From positions 41,670-105,669 of the forward strand of contig JAISLQ010000075.1 in assembly GCA_031290885.1 (NCBI GenBank): a DNA stretch of 64,000 nt, read 5' to 3'. Below the pieces are notes generated by a model that made no database searches, was not told the origin of the DNA, and saw only the letters and a program-made list of their open reading frames with translations. Source of the DNA: Acidaminococcales bacterium (GTDB lineage Bacteria; Bacillota; Negativicutes; Acidaminococcales; JAISLQ01). A program made the position numbers and the translations under genes. This document shows positions 17,496 to 25,089 of the stretch, in pieces (the first letter of the stretch is position 1; each line of letters starts with the position of its first letter).

Positions 17496-18209
17496 ATGTT
17501 TGTCGACGCAAGAGACCTTTCCCTTGATGAGATAGAAAACATTGAAAAACTGACTCTTCGTTGGCTTGTCCAAGCAACAATGGATTTTGGCTTTGATGCC
17601 TACGATATTTTCTATTATTCACCCGATAGCGTCAAGGATGTTGCAGAAGACATTACCCGTGAAATTGTTGACCGACTTCCAGGGTACAATACTACACAAC
17701 GAATATTCGGCACTGTGGATTATAAAAAAGCTCGCTACATAATCTTGCCCAACCAAATTGTAAGGCAGGCTCTCTTTGTTGACTCTAAAGCTGAGAAAAC
17801 GAATCAAACAGCAACACTTCAAATTTCACAAACATCTCTCGAAATTCGTCAGATGCGGAGTGGCTCAATTGTGAACGTACAAGGCAGATTGCCAGCAATT
17901 TATCCCCATGACAATAACAATTATTTAAGTACGACTCTTCTTCTGCACTACTGTTACGAAGATATTGAGAATCGACATTTTCTCAAAGATATTACAGTAT
18001 GCTGCGTGCCAAATGGTTTGTTACAGGAACGTTATAATCCAACACCAGAAAGAACTTTTTGGGTTGCCGGTCGAAACGCACCTTCGTTAGGAGAGGAGTT
18101 TCGCACAAGGATTAGTTTTGCGCGCTTAATTGCGCTAACTCCTTGGAGGGTTCAACGAATAAATATCATTCGCGAGGAAACAAAATTATCGCATTCTTGG
18201 CAGGAGTAG
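17496..18209 (+). CDS. type II restriction endonuclease candidate (PD-DxK fold, SfiI-like spacing)
   Basis: 237 aa. D75 ... D96-S-K98 (VDY ... FVDSKAEK) gives a PD-(D/E)xK layout. It lies immediately upstream of, and is translationally coupled to, a methyltransferase gene, and its composition is AT-rich. Confidence 0.55.
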   Translation: MFVDARDLSLDEIENIEKLTLRWLVQATMDFGFDAYDIFYYSPDSVKDVAEDITREIVDRLPGYNTTQRIFGTVDYKKARYIILPNQIVRQALFVDSKAEKTNQTATLQISQTSLEIRQMRSGSIVNVQGRLPAIYPHDNNNYLSTTLLLHYCYEDIENRHFLKDITVCCVPNGLLQERYNPTPERTFWVAGRNAPSLGEEFRTRISFARLIALTPWRVQRINIIREETKLSHSWQE

Positions 18210-18216
18210 GGGGGCT

Positions 18217-19215
18217 ATGAAATATCTTGATGTAAATCGGGTATATTGCGGTGACGCGAGAGACTTACTGCCAAAAATTTATCCAAACTCAATTTCACTG
18301 AGCGTTTGGTCGCCACCTTATCATGTGGGTAAAGACTATGAAAAAACGATGACCTATGGTGAGTGGGTCAATTTATTGTCTATCGTAATAGAGTTGCATT
18401 TTAACATTTTAAAACCAGGCGGATTTTTAGCGATAAATATCGCAGATATATTATGCTATAAAGACGGATCTATGCCTCAAATTATGGCCGAGAATGTGAG
18501 TAGGCGTAAAGTTTCGATTACTAAAGAACAGATTCTTGAAGCATGGTCACAACACGCGACTTATTCACGAAAGCAAATTGCTGAATTGATGGGGTGCAGC
18601 GAACAGACAATTGATAGAAGAATAAACGGCAACAATGTCCGTGGCGGCAAATATTCTCCGCAAACTAGAGTGAAACTTGCTGGCAATATTCTTGAAGATG
18701 CAGCATACAAGAGTTCATTATATCTTTATGATCGTCGTATTTGGGTAAAAGATCCCGCTTGGGAGAATAGTAGGTGGCATACTATATCTTATCGGGCCAT
18801 TGACGAATTTGAATACGTCTATATTTTCTGGAAGCCAGGCATTACCACTATAGATCGTTCCAGACTTAGCAAGGATGAGTGGATAAACTGGGGGTCTCGC
18901 GCAGTTTGGAATATTGCATCTGTAAGGGCGAATGATAATCACGAGTCAAAATATCCGATTGAACTGCCTCGACGTTTGATTCAATTACTAACTGTTCCAG
19001 GCGAAACAGTTCTTGATTGTTTTATTGGAAGCGGCACAAGTGCTGTTGCCGCAATAATTGAAGATAGAAATTATATCGGCATTGACAAAGAGCCTAAATC
19101 TGTGCATTTAACTAATTTAGCGTGCAAAGATGCATTTGCAAATAAAGTTACGATAGAAAACGCTCGAATGGAAGGCGAAAACCATTTTAACAAGCAGGCC
19201 GCGAAGCGGACTTAA
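18217..19215 (+). CDS. beta-class DNA N4/N6 methyltransferase (SPPY motif IV before FxGxG motif I)
   Basis: 332 aa with SPPY at aa 32-35 and DCFIGSGTSAVAA near the C-terminus. An HTH-like insert lies between them. Confidence 0.85.
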   Translation: MKYLDVNRVYCGDARDLLPKIYPNSISLSVWSPPYHVGKDYEKTMTYGEWVNLLSIVIELHFNILKPGGFLAINIADILCYKDGSMPQIMAENVSRRKVSITKEQILEAWSQHATYSRKQIAELMGCSEQTIDRRINGNNVRGGKYSPQTRVKLAGNILEDAAYKSSLYLYDRRIWVKDPAWENSRWHTISYRAIDEFEYVYIFWKPGITTIDRSRLSKDEWINWGSRAVWNIASVRANDNHESKYPIELPRRLIQLLTVPGETVLDCFIGSGTSAVAAIIEDRNYIGIDKEPKSVHLTNLACKDAFANKVTIENARMEGENHFNKQAAKRT

Positions 19216-19217
19216 CG

Positions 19218-19238
19218 GAAAACTCAAAATGAGTTTTC
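19218..19238 (+). terminator. weak hairpin after the methyltransferase gene
   Basis: GAAAACTCA-AAA-TGAGTTTTC, with no clear T-tail. Confidence 0.3.
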
Positions 19239-19348
19239 AGAGGGTGTTAGGATTCGCCCTTATTCCCGATGGTATGCCCGCGATTGTGCCACAGGATGTT
19301 TTTAAGCGGGTGCAGGAGCGAACGGAGAAGATGAAGCGGCAGCCGTAA
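19229..19348 (+). pseudogene. short fragment resembling an internal segment of a large serine recombinase
   Basis: The 39-codon ORF ends ...IPDGMPAIVPQDVFKRVQERTEKMKRQP-stop. The (h)IVxxxxFxxVQ pattern is recalled from serine-recombinase 'recombinase' domains. It has host-like G+C. Confidence 0.3.
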
Positions 19349-19400
19349 GAGCGCTCCATATCAGCGATTTTCGCTGTTCGCATTTGGACGGCAATGCCCT

Positions 19401-19457
19401 GCCACTATGGACAACCGCGAACCCGGCCCGCGCGTTTATCGCCGGGAAGTCGTTCGC
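19401..19457. repeat. direct repeat copy 2 (att-like), which doubles as the tRNA-Ser terminator stem
   Basis: GCCACTATGGACAACCGCGAACCCGGCCCGCGCGTTTATCGCCGGGAAGTCGTTCGC, followed by TTTTGTTTTT. Confidence 0.9.
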
Positions 19458-19470
19458 TTTTGTTTTTAAT
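19414..19470 (+). terminator. intrinsic terminator (GCGAAC CCGGC ... GCCGG ... GTTCGC + T-run)
   Basis: Nested stems inside repeat copy 2. Only this copy retains the TTTTGTTTTT tail. Confidence 0.6.
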
Positions 19471-19505
19471 CTTGCCTAAGCGCTTGCGCCCTTGTGTCTT
19501 TTACG

Positions 19506-19534
19506 TTGCCCTTATACCTTGTGCATGATAAAAT
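19506..19534 (+). promoter_or_regulatory. promoter TTGCCC-17 nt-TAAAAT with a TG extension
   Basis: Hexamers at 19506-19511 and 19529-19534, with TGA immediately 5' of the -10. Confidence 0.45.
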
Positions 19535-19583
19535 GAATTAGGCATTGGATGATAACGTATCGAAAGCGCAGGAGGTGTGCTTG

Positions 19584-20525
19584 GTGGGGTTTACATATAT
19601 AGATTTATTTGCGGGCATTGGCGGCTTCCATCAGGCGGCCGATGCTCTTGGCGGCGAGTGTGTTTTTGCAAGCGAAATTGATGCAGAAGCTAAGAGAGCA
19701 TATGAAGCGAACTATGGCCTTGCGCCGCATGGAGACATCACGAAAATTATTGCAGACGATATACCTGACCACGATGTGCTATTTGCTGGGTTCCCTTGTC
19801 AACCATTTAGCATTATTGGGAGCAGGCGCGGTTTCGACGATATTCGGGGAACTCTGTTTTTTGAAATCGCCCGCATACTTGAAGGAAAAAAAAATAAGCC
19901 GCAATTGTTCATATTGGAAAATGTTAAACAATTGAGCCGCCATAATAAGGGAAAGACCTTACAAACCATAATTGAAACATTGGAGCAACTCGGATATAAA
20001 GTTAAACATGACATTCTCAATGCTTTAGATTTTGGGTTGCCTCAAAAACGCGAAAGAACGATTATCGTGGGATTCCTAGACCAAAATGTTTCGTTCGCTT
20101 TTCCCGCGGAGAAGACATTGGGCAAGCTTGAAGATGTCTTGGAACCGAATGAAACGGTCGATTCTAAATTTTTTGCCAGTGAACGGATTATAGAAAAAAG
20201 ATTGACAAAACACAGGAGCGAGCATTGCCCTAGCATTTGGCACGAAAACAAAAGTGGCAACATTACGAGTTATCCGTACTCCTGCGCTTTGCGGGCTGGC
20301 GCGTCTTATAACTATTTGTTGGTGAATGGCAAACGGCGTTTGACTCCGCGCGAAATGTTGCGGTTGCAGGGTTTCCCGAATACGTTCAAAATCGTTTGTA
20401 ATGACAGCCAGACTCGCAAGCAAGCAGGCAATGCAGTTCCTGTAAATGTTATAAAAGCTGTGCTAAAGGATGCCCTTTATGCCCAGGCCGAGGTTAAGAG
20501 ACAATCAAAGGAGAGAGCCATTTGA
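19584..20525 (+). CDS. dcm: DNA (cytosine-5)-methyltransferase
   Basis: FAGIGGF (motif I), FPCQPFS (PC motif IV), ENVKQL and QAGNAVPVNV. The listed ORF starts at TTG 19545, but AGGAGG at 19570-19575 favours the TTG at 19581 or the GTG at 19584. Confidence 0.9.
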   Translation: MGFTYIDLFAGIGGFHQAADALGGECVFASEIDAEAKRAYEANYGLAPHGDITKIIADDIPDHDVLFAGFPCQPFSIIGSRRGFDDIRGTLFFEIARILEGKKNKPQLFILENVKQLSRHNKGKTLQTIIETLEQLGYKVKHDILNALDFGLPQKRERTIIVGFLDQNVSFAFPAEKTLGKLEDVLEPNETVDSKFFASERIIEKRLTKHRSEHCPSIWHENKSGNITSYPYSCALRAGASYNYLLVNGKRRLTPREMLRLQGFPNTFKIVCNDSQTRKQAGNAVPVNVIKAVLKDALYAQAEVKRQSKERAI

Positions 20526-20851: not shown

Positions 20852-22129
20852 ATGGCAAACAACCGATTCCCGCGCCAACGGAAAATTATCGCCGGAACAA
20901 TATTGGGAACCATCATTGTTGTTTTCACCAGCTTTGTATTATATGGGGGCATGAAAGCCAGAGGGCTCGTCAAAGAATATATAGCCTCCGAATTTTTAGC
21001 CGGGGAATTTGATTTCGGCGAAGTCAGCGGCGTGTTCAGCGGCGACGTCGTAATAAGGGACATTTTATGGAAAGACCCGGAGGGAAACCCTGTCGTCAAA
21101 ATACCGAGGGCAAAAGCGTATGTGCGCCTGCGGGACATATTGTTCGGCAATTTCGGCGCCAATTCCCTCCGCCGGGTCGAGCTGTCCGAGCCGGAGATAT
21201 ATCTTAAATACGACGAAAAAGACGGGCTGAATATATTCCGTCTGCTGAAAACAAGCACGCCCGCCCCTGCAAGCGGCGAAAAAAAATCAAGTCCTTCCGA
21301 AAACGGGCAAAAGCAAAAGGCGGCCAAATATCAGACGACGCTTGAAATCGACAACGGCTTCACGCTCATAAACAATCAGCGGATAAACATCAATGGCGAA
21401 ATCGTGTTCAGCGACGAAAAAGAGGACTTAAATTTAAAAATTGACTCAAACAAGATTAAAATAGACGCTTTGCTGCCGGGGCTTGGCATATACGACGAAT
21501 TGCTTTTCACCATTGACGCCAAAGGCACGCTGGACAAACCGCAAGCAGAAGGGGAAATATCCATGCCTAAGTTAAATGCGGCCCAGCTGGCTTTGACAAA
21601 CTTGAAAGGCCACTTTGCTTTCAGCGATGGGAACATCAAAGTTTCCGACGCTTCCGCCAATGTATACGGCGGTTCCGTAAAAGGCGGCGGCAACATCAGA
21701 TGGGCGGACAGATCCTTTGAATTTGACGCCGCCGGTTCCGGCATCAACAGCGGAGAATTGAGCGATTCATTGGACGCGCCTGTTTCTTTCAACGCGCACA
21801 TCAGCGGGACAAGCGATTTCAATTCGCTTGTTGCGTCCGGCCCCTTTGCCGTTGGCGCGGGACAAGCCAAAGGCGTCCCGTTCACTTCCATAACCGGCAA
21901 TTTTTACAAACGCGGCGGCAACATGACCTTCAGCAACTTAAACGTGTCAACCGCTGTGGGCAACTTAAAAATCAAGCGGGTCTTTGTAAATGAAAACAAT
22001 AAAATTTCGGTGGACTTCAGCAATCTTTTGGATGACGCCAACGCCGCGCTGAAAAAGCAAGCGGACGCGGCGACCCGAAAAGGGATCAACAAAACATTGG
22101 ATTCTATAAAAAAGGGTTTAAAATTTTAA
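20852..22129 (+). CDS. membrane-anchored AsmA/TamB-like beta-rich protein (hypothetical)
   Basis: 425 aa with an N-terminal TM helix (IIAGTILGTIIVVFTSFVLYGG), then a repetitive G/S/N/D-rich beta-type sequence reminiscent of AsmA-family proteins. GGGGAGGG RBS. Confidence 0.45.
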   Translation: MANNRFPRQRKIIAGTILGTIIVVFTSFVLYGGMKARGLVKEYIASEFLAGEFDFGEVSGVFSGDVVIRDILWKDPEGNPVVKIPRAKAYVRLRDILFGNFGANSLRRVELSEPEIYLKYDEKDGLNIFRLLKTSTPAPASGEKKSSPSENGQKQKAAKYQTTLEIDNGFTLINNQRININGEIVFSDEKEDLNLKIDSNKIKIDALLPGLGIYDELLFTIDAKGTLDKPQAEGEISMPKLNAAQLALTNLKGHFAFSDGNIKVSDASANVYGGSVKGGGNIRWADRSFEFDAAGSGINSGELSDSLDAPVSFNAHISGTSDFNSLVASGPFAVGAGQAKGVPFTSITGNFYKRGGNMTFSNLNVSTAVGNLKIKRVFVNENNKISVDFSNLLDDANAALKKQADAATRKGINKTLDSIKKGLKF

Positions 22130-22840
22130 GCATCCGGGCGCAAACAATCCAAAAAACATCTGCCGGGAAATCCCTGATGGCTGTTTGCGGCGCTAAGCCG
22201 GATATTCCCCCTCCCGGCCCTTTGCCGAAAAAGGCGGCGCGGCCTATGGCGGAGCAAATCAACGACAGCCCGCGCCCAAGAGATTATCTCCGCAAGCCCT
22301 TTGCGTACGGGCTTGCGCGGCGGAATCGCCCCAAAAGCCCCCCTGCGGCTACGGCCATGCAGCACTTGGAAAACGCGTTGTTTAAAACAACGACATGGAT
22401 ACTGTTCGCAGATTAAAACCATACTATCTTTGCGCTCTTGGCCATACCAAAACGAATTGGAAAAATGACGCATTGAACAACAAGGGCGCCCGGGCGATTC
22501 TTGCTTTGCCGGCTCCGGCCGGCAGCATGCGCCCGGCGGCGCTTCTTTTTTTGCCTTCAGGCGTTTTCCAATCGGCTTATCGGTTTGTCTGTGCTTGCCA
22601 ATATGTCCGCCGACAAATTACAGGACGGCTCTCCGCCAAGCTTTTCCCCCTTCGGATGGGGCAGTTGCGCTTTCAATCGGCGGCACTTTTTGCCTGATTA
22701 TAATTTACGGCAATTTGGCCGCATGGCTTTCCCGCTTCCGGCAAAAAAGCCTGCCCATTATTTCTCCGGCAAAAAAAGGGATACGGCGGCTATGCGGCGA
22801 ATATGGCAATATTTGGGTATGTCCGCAAAGGAGGCTCTTC

Positions 22841-24976
22841 ATGGAAAAGGAGATGCTTTTTGCTCTTGATATAGGGACGCGCAGCGTGGTCGGCATCGTC
22901 GCCGAAAAAGAGGACAAAACCATCAACATCATCGCCGTCGACCGCCAAGAACACGTTACCCGCGCCATGCTGGACGGACAGATACACGACGTGCCGCAGG
23001 TGGCGCATACCATCGGCGAAGTGCGCGACCGCCTGGCCAAAAAGACCGGCCATGCCCTGACCAAAGCCTCGGTTGCGGCAGCCGGGCGCGCCCTGATCAC
23101 CATAACCGCCTCATCCGAGCTTGATACCGCCAACATCCTTTCGCTGGACGCGGAAACTGAACAAATGCTGGTCCTTTCCGCCGTGCAGTCGGCTCAGCGC
23201 GGCCTGGCGGCCGACTGCCGGGCGAACGATCCCACCGGCTACTATTGCGTGGGCTATTCGGTCATAGAATTCAAATTGGACGGTTCGCGCCTGTCAACCC
23301 TTATCGGACAAAGGGGGCGGACGGCTTCGGTAACCATCATAGCGACCTTTCTGCCGCGGCCGGTCATAGACTCCATGCAATCCGCCTTGTCCAGCCTGGA
23401 TTTGGAAATAGGCACCATCACCCTGGAGCCGATCGCCGCCATAAATGTCCTCATACCGCCCACCATGCGCCACCTGAACCTGACCTTGGTGGACATAGGC
23501 GCCGGCACTTCCGACGTTGCCATAACTTCGGGCGGATCGGTCATAGGCTTCGGCATGGTGCCCTGCGCCGGCGACGAAGTAACCGAAGCCCTGTCGCAAA
23601 AATATCTTCTGGATTTTAATGTGGCGGAAAAGATAAAAAGGCAGCTCAACGAAAAGCCCAAAAAAATCGAAATGCACGACGTCCTCGGCGGCGTCATACA
23701 CTCCACCCCCAAGGAAATATTGGACAGCATCCGCCCGACCGTCCAAGAATTGGCCGATCTGATTGTCAAAGAAATACTTTCCCTCAACAACAACAACAAC
23801 CCGCAGGCCATACTGCTCATCGGCGGCGGCGCGCTCACGCCCATGCTGCAGGAACTGATCGCCGAGACCATCGGCATGCCGCCGGAAAAAGTCGCCATCC
23901 GCCTGCCTGCGCCCACCCTTCTCCTGCCCAGCATACCGGACGAGCTTTATTCGCCCGAGGCGATAACCCCGCTCGGCATACTTTGCCTCAGCAACAGCGA
24001 CCACCTTAATTTCATAACTATCAGGATGAACAAGCAAGTGCACCGCCTGTTCAACCTCGGCAGCCTGAAAATATCCGATGCCCTGCTGTCGAGCAACATT
24101 GACATCAACAGCATAAAAGGGCGCCCGGGGCTTGGCATAACGGTGGAAGTAAACGGCCAGACCAAATTTATCCCCGGCACTTACGGCACGCCCGGCTCGC
24201 TTGAGCTGAACGGCAAACCGGCGGCCTTAGACGACAAACTTAAAGACGGCGACAAATTAAAAGTAGTAAAAGGCGTTGCCGGCAAACCGCCGAAAAGCCA
24301 TGTCCTCGACATCGTTGACTGTTCCAACATGGGCAACGTCTACGTCAACGGCAAAAAATACCCCCTGATCCCGGTCATCCTCTTGAACGGCGAACCGGCC
24401 GGCCCGTCCTCGCGCCTGTCCGACCGGGACAAAATAGAAGTCCTGCCGCCGGACAACATCGGCCGCCTGCTTGACCAGGCAGGCGTGGATTATGAAGACG
24501 ATGAATTTGAATACGCGGTGAACAAAAACATCATCGGCTACAAATGCCCGCGGCCGATAACCCTGAACGGGCAGAAAGCCAGCCTTTTGTCGCCGGTAAA
24601 ACCGGGGGACGTCATCGGCGTGGAAAAAGGCGAGCGCCCGACATTGGAACAATTGCTCGCGCTGGATGTCGTAACCGTGGATACCATCGAAGTATTCTTT
24701 AATGACGCCCCGGTCAGGATCGCCCGCTCCTTTAAAGAATTTACCGTCAACGGCAAATCGGCCAAGCCCTCTTACGTCCCCAAAGAAACCGACGCGATCG
24801 CTTTCCGGCTGGGCAAAAAAACCCCGATGATTAGCGACGTGCTTTTGGCCGGCGAATTTGACCCGCAAAAAATAGCCAAAGAACGCAAAAACATTGAAAT
24901 CCTCCTAAACGGCGAAAAAACCGAATTCACCGCGCCGGTAAAAAACGGCGACAAAATAACCGTTACCGTCCGCTGA
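22841..24976 (+). CDS. FtsA/actin-fold ATPase fused to repeated ThiS/MoaD-like beta-grasp modules
   Basis: The start is at the ATG after AAAGGAGG. The N-terminal half has ALDIGTRSVVG (phosphate 1), LVDIGAGTSDV (phosphate 2) and LIGGGALTP (adenosine) actin-fold motifs. The C-terminal about 320 aa holds about six xNGxx...(D/N)GDxIxV units. Confidence 0.7.
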   Translation: MEKEMLFALDIGTRSVVGIVAEKEDKTINIIAVDRQEHVTRAMLDGQIHDVPQVAHTIGEVRDRLAKKTGHALTKASVAAAGRALITITASSELDTANILSLDAETEQMLVLSAVQSAQRGLAADCRANDPTGYYCVGYSVIEFKLDGSRLSTLIGQRGRTASVTIIATFLPRPVIDSMQSALSSLDLEIGTITLEPIAAINVLIPPTMRHLNLTLVDIGAGTSDVAITSGGSVIGFGMVPCAGDEVTEALSQKYLLDFNVAEKIKRQLNEKPKKIEMHDVLGGVIHSTPKEILDSIRPTVQELADLIVKEILSLNNNNNPQAILLIGGGALTPMLQELIAETIGMPPEKVAIRLPAPTLLLPSIPDELYSPEAITPLGILCLSNSDHLNFITIRMNKQVHRLFNLGSLKISDALLSSNIDINSIKGRPGLGITVEVNGQTKFIPGTYGTPGSLELNGKPAALDDKLKDGDKLKVVKGVAGKPPKSHVLDIVDCSNMGNVYVNGKKYPLIPVILLNGEPAGPSSRLSDRDKIEVLPPDNIGRLLDQAGVDYEDDEFEYAVNKNIIGYKCPRPITLNGQKASLLSPVKPGDVIGVEKGERPTLEQLLALDVVTVDTIEVFFNDAPVRIARSFKEFTVNGKSAKPSYVPKETDAIAFRLGKKTPMISDVLLAGEFDPQKIAKERKNIEILLNGEKTEFTAPVKNGDKITVTVR

Positions 24977-25052: not shown

Positions 25053-25089
25053 TGCTGGACTTGTTTTCCAGTCCAGCCTTTTCTGTCTT
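25053..25089 (+). terminator. intrinsic terminator after the FtsA-like gene
   Basis: GCTGGACT-TGTTTTCC-AGTCCAGC followed by CTTTTCTGTCTTT. Confidence 0.6.

Follow-up and report, generated by a model that had tools for sequence, protein, structure and literature searches.

We analyzed a stretch of 64,000 nucleotides from the genome of an Acidaminococcales bacterium (Bacillota, class Negativicutes; contig JAISLQ010000075.1, here C75). We refer to this whole stretch as the window, and its numbering is used for all positions unless another contig is named. The gene under study occupies positions 22841 to 24976 of the forward strand and encodes a protein that joins an FtsA-like ATPase half, predicted to have an actin fold, to a tail of beta-grasp modules. 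It belongs to a large family of Bacillota proteins, and its carriers in our genome sample all have flagellar genes. From this confinement we judge it reasonably likely that the protein is an accessory component of a flagellar motility or chemotaxis system in Bacillota. The features of the gene are listed below in order of position.

22777..22802, forward strand: candidate sigma-H-type promoter AGGGATA-N12-GGCGAAT, 39 nucleotides 5' of the start codon (motif match)
22830..22834, forward strand: ribosome-binding site GGAGG, 6 nucleotides 5' of the ATG (read from the sequence)
22841..24976, forward strand: whole gene, FtsA-like ATPase with beta-grasp tail (711 codons and stop, no internal stops)
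22841..23995, forward strand: predicted actin-fold ATPase domain, FtsA class, aa (amino acids) 1-385 (Foldseek, TIGR01174)
22865..22885, forward strand: phosphate-1 motif LDIGTRS, aa 9-15 (invariant in 57 homologues)
23063..23356, forward strand: inserted subdomain, aa ~75-172, at the FtsA/PilM 1C position (secondary structure of the model)
23486..23515, forward strand: phosphate-2 motif LVDIGAGTSD, aa 216-225 (D218 and G220-D225 invariant)
23813..23842, forward strand: adenosine motif LLIGGGALTP, aa 325-334 (G328-G330 and T333 invariant)
24005..24058, forward strand: extra beta hairpin a0, aa 389-406, at the start of the tail (strands E390-396 and E399-405)
24059..24286, forward strand: repeat unit 1, aa 407-482, with helix, hairpin, xNGx strand pair and GDxIxV strand, and invariant GRPG and PGTxG loops
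24287..24448, forward strand: repeat unit 2, aa 483-536 (Pfam Ub-Mut7C at aa 510-536)
24449..24628, forward strand: repeat unit 3, aa 537-596
24629..24820, forward strand: repeat unit 4, aa 597-660 (weak Pfam S4 match below cut-off, aa 634-653)
24821..24973, forward strand: repeat unit 5, aa 661-711, without the hairpin, ending in the final beta strand (Pfam ThiS at aa 669-708)
25054..25077, forward strand: terminator-like hairpin, 78 nucleotides past the stop codon

The original prediction, made from the sequence alone, had drawn the reading frame at the same coordinates, and we confirm it as 711 amino acids without stops. A longer frame is possible from the TTG at 22595. Judging from the sequence, ATG 22841 is the true start codon, because the GGAGG precedes it and homologues share a MEK or MDK start.

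The ATPase half and its predicted FtsA-class fold

The actin-fold nucleotide motifs pointed out by the original prediction are all present (FALDIGTRSVVG at aa 7-18, LVDIGAGTSDV at aa 216-226 and LIGGGALTP at aa 326-334) and are invariant across an alignment of 57 homologues from Negativicutes and Bacilli; by these residues, the nucleotide site is intact. Pfam matches to FtsA (PF14450, E 4e-15), PilM_2 and MreB_Mbl fall within aa 198-377, and the FtsA equivalog model TIGR01174 covers aa 6-353 with 95.9 bits, against a curated cut-off of 175.85.

An AlphaFold2 model of the full-length protein, built from a 57-sequence alignment, has a mean predicted local distance difference test score (pLDDT) of 86.7. 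When this model is compared with the PDB by Foldseek, FtsA structures match best (7q6g, 7q6d, 7q6f, 1e4g and 3wqt), with target-normalized template-modeling (TM) scores of 0.80-0.85 over about 400 columns, followed by PilM (TM 0.63-0.75) and then by EutJ and MreB (about 0.6). Because FtsA structures superpose better than PilM or MreB, the modeled N-terminal 385 residues are assigned to the FtsA class of the actin fold. The insert at aa ~75-172 is modeled as strands and one helix (E75-80, E86-95, H104-124, E134-146, E161-172), and by position and topology we infer it to be subdomain 1C. The Foldseek superposition and this beta/alpha insert together display the FtsA trait of a subdomain 1C replacing 1B. 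At the other end of the chain the model closes with a beta strand (E705-710), in agreement with the earlier remark that an FtsA membrane helix could not be recognized.

The beta-grasp tail

The original prediction had counted about six repeats. Cutting the tail at its helices delimits five units, with one extra N-terminal hairpin (aa 389-406) in front of them. The five units are mutually homologous (profile-profile probability 96.6-98.8%, E 5e-10 to 5e-17), and the repeats are, on this alignment evidence, genuine and not a product of chance. A unit opens with a helix, continues with a beta hairpin ("a") and a pair of xNGx strands ("b"), and closes with the GDxIxV strand ("c"). Over the whole tail, hairpins, helices and b-c sets number five each, arranged as a0-α1-a1-b1c1-α2-a2-b2c2 ... 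α5-b5c5, and the best alignments of hairpin a0 are to those inside units 2 and 4 (hhalign probability 92% and 89%, respectively).

The canonical order of a beta-grasp domain is hairpin-helix-b-c. The simplest reading of the modeled tail would be that five canonical beta-grasps interlock as a chain, each with its hairpin placed inside the domain before it, because single-domain Foldseek alignments span 87-103 columns (targets of 64-89 residues) and so exceed one unit of 51-76 residues. Direct-coupling analysis of the tail (295-318 sequences), which compared hairpin packing on the own unit with packing on the next, gave a signal dominated by insertion-deletion artefacts. An AlphaFold2 model of the tail only (aa 386-711, 50-sequence alignment) reached a pLDDT of 92.4 and a predicted TM score of 0.64; because the latter value is high for a multi-domain chain, it suggests that the domains are packed in a fixed arrangement. 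In unit 1, the two invariant loops, GRPG and PGTxG, may form a junction with the ATPase half or a putative binding site.

Pfam recognizes ThiS at aa 669-708 (E 1.8e-9) and Ub-Mut7C at aa 510-536 (E 1.3e-9), while S4 and TGS matches stay below their cut-offs. In the Foldseek comparison of the tail, the top PDB matches consist entirely of beta-grasp proteins, namely bacterial proteins with several ubiquitin domains (9cd2, 9d5a), linear di-ubiquitin, ThiS (3cwi, target-normalized TM score, TMt, 0.67 and root-mean-square deviation 2.3 on one module), TGS domains (2kmm and SpoT, 7qpr), MoaD (6jbz) and SAMP1 (3po0). No S4-domain protein is found among the top 50 matches, and the tail profile gives weak matches (E 0.08-0.7) to S4 (YabO), MoaD and SAMP2 among PDB sequences. 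The beta-grasp reading of the original prediction thus survives its fold test. The likeness to ThiS and MoaD that it had drawn stands as regards the fold, by Foldseek and Pfam, but does not extend to the features of a carrier, since the modules are internal and there is neither a terminal Gly-Gly nor a conserved E1-like neighbor. The C-terminus reads KNGDKITVTVR, and the C-termini of 35 homologues are variable, none of them with GG. No E1-like (ThiF/MoeB) gene occurs among the neighbors in the window or among the recurrent neighbors in 100 loci, and the sole ThiF match among the neighbors is a spurious Rossmann match on TrkA.

Family and host range

The architecture had been described as unusual; it proves to be that of a large conserved family in Bacillota. 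A word-indexed search returned at least 8000 clusters at 90% identity, nearly all of 700-740 aa and with the same Pfam set, and an exhaustive search returned 536 representatives of 50% clusters at E ≤ 1e-30. The hosts are Negativicutes (including Pelosinus, Sporomusa, Propionispira, Pectinatus, Selenomonas, Mitsuokella, Anaerovibrio and Megamonas), Bacilli (including Brevibacillus, Aneurinibacillus, Ureibacillus, Alkalibacillus and Psychrobacillus) and Clostridia. Members are named "cell division protein FtsA", "cell division FtsA domain-containing protein" or "rod shape-determining protein" in databases; the first and the last of these names look wrong. Our literature search found no paper describing an FtsA-like ATPase with a beta-grasp array, and FtsA is not mentioned in a survey of the beta-grasp fold (PMC1949818).

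The gene is single-copy. Its ATPase half, about 55-60% identical across Negativicutes, is far better conserved than the tail, which is 26-40% identical to the query as against 39-51% for the whole protein. Homologues in Clostridia have frames of 582-770 aa of which only the first 500-560 residues align, so either the number or the sequence of the repeats varies there. Selenomonad-type homologues have open frames of 740-1371 aa with a basic, Lys/Arg/Ala/Pro-rich, low-complexity N-terminal extension, which the window protein does not have. One metagenome-assembled genome labeled as Clostridia (Acetatifactor) holds two copies, 45% and 33% identical to the query; the former, which resembles Selenomonas copies and lies on a short contig, is probably a mis-binned Selenomonad contig.

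Phyletic profile

The distribution of the protein was compared with that of FlhA, the flagellar export gate, in about 850 Bacillota genomes, and exceptions were rechecked with FliG, flagellin and CheA. All 369 distinct carriers have flagellar genes, and none of the 312 FlhA-negative genomes carries the protein. Among 151 Negativicutes the match is exact: the same 90 genomes have both the protein and FlhA, the other 61 have neither, and the tallies by family and by genus are identical. The 301 Bacilli comprise 107 carriers, all FlhA-positive, 85 FlhA-negative genomes without a single carrier, and 109 that have FlhA without the protein; the corresponding figures for 250 Clostridia are 53 carriers (all FlhA-positive), no carrier in 161 FlhA-negative genomes, and 36 with FlhA alone.

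The Selenomonad-type family was sampled in full, and 138 of its 152 genomes carry the protein. The genomes without it are 12 from three genera that also have no FlhA, and two fragmented, 90%-complete assemblies with FlhA in which no copy was detected. Conversely, three carriers in which FlhA went undetected do have FliG, or five flagellin genes and CheA, and their FlhA gap reflects an unassembled fla/che operon. Two closed genomes of flagellum-less genera in this family have no flagellin, CheA, FlhA or target gene. At least three joint losses of the protein and flagella are visibly independent, located in the window's own order, at least once in the Selenomonad-type family and at least once among the remaining Negativicutes families. 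The window's own genome has a fla/che cluster on contig C70 (flhB, flhA, flhF, flhG, cheA, cheW, cheC, cheD and a gene resembling sigma-D; these names were assigned from gene order and size).

Two other traits were considered as the basis of this pattern. A tie to rod shape was ruled out, as MreB-type matches persist in flagellum-less genomes. A tie to sporulation was likewise ruled out, as carriers include non-sporulating Selenomonas-type genomes and those of the Pectinatus and Megamonas types, besides Sporomusa. The original prediction could assign no function to the protein; its distribution across genomes suggests that it serves flagellar motility or chemotaxis.

Promoter and gene neighborhoods

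Of 79 homologous loci, 10 have the motif AGG[AG]www-N11-13-RnnGAAT upstream of the gene, compared with a mean of 0.66 (maximum 3) in shuffled sequences and 2 on the reverse complement. This enrichment comes chiefly from Brevibacillus and Aneurinibacillus, and the window has a copy as well. SigH of the window's own genome scores 363 bits against a curated cut-off of 294.8. To judge from these motifs, the gene is probably transcribed from a sigma-H-type promoter and not from one of the flagellar sigma-D type.

The gene looks monocistronic from the local sequence. Its 3' neighbors, a PrpF gene followed by a methylisocitrate-lyase-type gene, are on the opposite strand. On the 5' side, the non-coding stretch that the original prediction had put at about 700 bp measures some 710 bp (22130-22840); it holds short open reading frames only, and a scan of 22000-23000 against Rfam gave zero matches, hence no known riboswitch or leader. 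Within the gap, at 22529-22542 and 400 nucleotides past the end of the preceding gene, the forward strand has a terminator-like element, a G+C-rich hairpin with a T-run after it. The gap also contains a single copy, at 22398-22434, of a short dispersed repeat (TACTGTTCGCAGATTAAAACCATACTATCTTTGC...) that has at least 20 copies in the genome. Other copies extend over about 100 nucleotides (…GCGGCCAATTTGCCGCCCCGCT…), and one TACTGTTCGCAGATTAAAACCATACTATCTTTGC copy lies between flhB and flhA (C70:16869-16904).

The preceding gene (20852-22129) had been called AsmA-like. Matches to DUF748 (32.8 bits, cut-off 50) and AsmA (27 bits, cut-off 29.8) do exist, but both fall below the Pfam thresholds. Further 5', a restriction-modification cluster (17496-20525) comprises genes for an N4/N6 DNA methylase, a C5 cytosine methylase and an SfiI-like endonuclease of 237 aa; the Pfam match of the endonuclease is confined to the C-terminal two thirds of the model.

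Across 80 loci from Negativicutes and Bacilli, the conserved neighbors are fakA/fakB in Negativicutes or aroA/ccpA in Bacilli. A DAK2-domain (FakA-like) gene is divergent from the homologue in 38 of these loci, all of them in Negativicutes, often with a DegV (FakB-like) gene, at position -1 or -2. We regard these recurrences as synteny and not as an operon, because the neighbors are divergent or on the opposite strand. At the window locus the fakA/fakB synteny is lost, and no fakA remnant was found in the 710-bp gap. In Clostridia, 9 of 20 loci have a GGDEF gene directly 3', and 7 of 20 have HD-GYP genes in the vicinity. The 3' gene there encodes a membrane GAF-GGDEF diguanylate cyclase on the same strand, with HD-GYP a few genes upstream. 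Most of the GGDEF-linked loci represent one syntenic block (response regulator, kinase, protease, HD-GYP, glycogen synthase, nth, target gene, GGDEF).

Interpretation

The best explanation of these results is a soluble, cytoplasmic ATPase of the FtsA/PilM class that carries a five-module beta-grasp array where FtsA has its membrane-targeting helix. In FtsA and PilM, this scaffold serves both for self-association and for docking short cytoplasmic peptides that belong to membrane partners. By analogy, the ATPase half would bind ATP and dock or self-assemble via FtsA-like surfaces (the 1C and 2B subdomains), and the rigid beta-grasp array would act as a protein-binding arm or platform linking it to motility proteins. 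Possible partners would be components of the basal body, the switch, FlhF/FlhG, the stator or the chemosensory array, or enzymes of cyclic di-GMP (c-di-GMP) metabolism, and the outcome would be an effect on flagellar placement, assembly or control. An accessory role fits best, whether in placement, in number control or in coupling to c-di-GMP enzymes or chemosensory arrays; for the c-di-GMP link, the recurrence of GGDEF and HD-GYP genes is weak support. Our confidence in any particular mechanism is much lower than in the involvement in motility or chemotaxis as such.

The protein is single-copy and strongly conserved, and it occurs in about half of the sampled Bacillota that have flagella but in none of those without them, which makes it a strong candidate for a missing motility component. 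What is known of how flagella are assembled and placed in Gram-positive and diderm Bacillota comes mostly from Bacillus subtilis, which to our knowledge has no protein of such architecture. Several points weigh against a role in motility. No flagellar gene lies near the target gene in the window, and physical linkage to flagellar or chemotaxis genes is absent from the window and from the 80 loci of Negativicutes and Bacilli. A sigma-D promoter (TAAA-N14-17-GCCGATA) occurs in 1 of 81 upstream regions, the same as in shuffled sequences, and was rejected for the window's lineage. As many as 145 flagellated Bacilli and Clostridia do without the protein, which therefore is not an essential flagellar part. 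Related genomes are not independent, so that group labels allow roughly three to five independent joint losses to be counted, and co-occurrence cannot tell flagella, chemotaxis and c-di-GMP control apart.

A bolder form of the motility reading, which we regard as a possibility on the doubtful side, is that the protein is a new cytoskeletal element. It would form ATP-dependent filaments or rings from which a rigid arm of five ubiquitin folds positions or counts basal bodies or chemoreceptor arrays, in parallel with FlhF/FlhG. If true, this would be a cytoskeletal function that is not in the standard models, which lack the gene.

Alternatively, the protein could be a sensor or regulator whose TGS/S4/ThiS-like modules bind RNA or c-di-GMP/(p)ppGpp and whose ATPase relays the signal to motility genes or to the motor. 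The superposition of single modules on SpoT/Rel TGS domains and ThiS, the weak S4 and TGS sequence matches, the GGDEF and HD-GYP genes that recur by the Clostridia homologues, and the invariant loops of unit 1, which are as expected of a binding site, would all agree with this. We nevertheless consider it unlikely: the S4 and TGS matches are below cut-off, no beta-grasp protein is known to act as a c-di-GMP receptor and none was found, HD-GYP and GGDEF genes are so abundant in these genomes that proximity within 8 kb may be chance, and the variable repeat number implied by the Clostridia frames is easier to reconcile with a spacer or platform than with a defined ligand site.

The link to flagella could also be indirect, with the protein serving another trait of motile rod- or crescent-shaped Bacillota, such as polarity, curvature, envelope or lipid homeostasis, that is co-lost in reduced, host-adapted lineages. 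The fatty-acid kinase genes fakA/fakB beside 38 of 80 loci, the missing sigma-D motif and the mostly small genomes of the non-flagellated clades speak for such an account. However, in one family the protein follows FlhA to genus level at similar genome sizes (2.1-2.6 Mb without it, 1.4-4.3 Mb with it), the confinement to FlhA-positive genomes holds across three classes, MreB-type genes persist where the protein is lost, and fakA is divergent and is not a neighbor outside Negativicutes. Taken together, these observations make the indirect account improbable in our view.

The names given to the family raise the question of whether the protein is the organism's functional FtsA, tethering or organizing FtsZ, with the beta-grasp tail replacing the membrane helix. 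With FtsA sought as a control, the window's own genome (2.13 Mb, 95% complete) gave no match over the FtsA cut-off; the target gene came first (98 bits, under the cut-off) and an MreB gene beside mreCD second. In the genome's dcw cluster, on contig C54, mraZ ... murC is followed by ftsQ, two small genes and ftsZ, without ftsA. The protein is thus the best FtsA-like sequence of a nearly complete genome that has no canonical ftsA, its modeled fold is closest to FtsA, and its candidate sigma-H-type promoter recalls the sigma-H promoter of ftsAZ in B. subtilis.

Even so, we conclude that the protein is not the divisome FtsA, and its acting as a functional FtsA is very unlikely. Its score lies far under the FtsA cut-off, its gene and the dcw cluster are on different contigs, it has no C-terminal amphipathic helix, and two SepF genes are available in the genome to anchor FtsZ. 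Among the 151 Negativicutes, a true FtsA (a frame of about 400 aa, over the cut-off) is present in 43, all of which carry the long protein as well. The Selenomonad-type and several other families have the long protein only, and both are missing from three whole families, one of which is the family nearest the window's genome; true FtsA and the long protein therefore vary independently. The distribution tracks FlhA and not FtsZ, and in 100 loci ftsZ is never beside a homologue. The apparently wrong names of thousands of entries could also mask the fact that Negativicutes of the Selenomonad, Veillonella and Acidaminococcus types really lack FtsA. A separate observation concerns the division genes themselves: at C54:1653-5879, murC and an ftsQ-like gene are followed by genes of 232 and 109 aa and then by tandem ftsZ copies of 361 and 325 aa, and the second ftsZ match has one TGA and one TAG flagged inside.

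A PilM-type part of a type IV pilus or competence machine would agree with the TIGR01175 and PF11104 matches and with the superposition on PilM structures at TM 0.63-0.75. It is highly improbable, as the score is 53.7 bits against a cut-off of 133, no pilN- or pilO-like genes are adjacent in 100 loci, and FtsA is the closer fold. Finally, a ubiquitin-like conjugation, sulfur-carrier or anti-phage (Bil/Bub-type multi-ubiquitin) system, to which the best Foldseek matches of the tail (9cd2 and 9d5a, E 3e-5 to 2e-4) and the Pfam matches to ThiS and Ub-Mut7C might point, can practically be set aside, given the variable C-terminal ends without Gly-Gly, the lack of E1, E2 or deubiquitinase genes nearby, a PADLOC result limited to PDC-M61B (E 2.9e-6 over 34 residues, with no stretch passing alone) and the fact that the gene, in contrast to defence islands, belongs stably and in single copy to the core genes of flagellated lineages.

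Comparison with known systems

Bacterial multi-ubiquitin proteins of Bil/Bub-type operons (9cd2, 9d5a, 9d5b) resemble the protein in having several ubiquitin folds per chain and give the tail its best Foldseek E-values; the global TM score is only 0.16-0.23, however, and the target has no conjugation genes nearby and no defence-island context. ThiS, MoaD and SAMP together with TGS domains (PF02597; 3cwi, 6jbz, 3po0, 2kmm, 7qpr) share the xNGx ... GDxIxV signature and superpose on single modules with TMt 0.5-0.67 and a probability of 0.97-1.00. They differ in that the target's modules are internal and tandem, lack a free Gly-Gly and an E1 partner, and have the helix first in the sequence unit.

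With FtsA (TIGR01174, PF14450; 7q6g, 7q6d, 1e4g, 3wqt, 4a2a), the protein shares the predicted actin fold, the insert at the 1C position and the phosphate-1, phosphate-2 and adenosine motifs. The identity between the two is about 20%, and the score is under the family cut-off; where FtsA has a C-terminal amphipathic helix, the target has five beta-grasp modules, and its gene lies outside the dcw cluster. The nearest functional analogy may be PilM (TIGR01175, PF11104; 5eou, 2ych), likewise a soluble FtsA-like protein without a membrane helix of its own, which serves a surface-appendage machine. PilM gives the weaker match and lacks a C-terminal domain array, and the target has no pilNOPQ neighbors. 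The family thus combines a known scaffold, that of FtsA and PilM, with a new tail and a new cellular context. It is a naturally occurring fusion of an actin-fold ATPase with ubiquitin-fold modules in tandem and, if our reading is true, represents a third use of this scaffold after the divisome and the type IV pilus.

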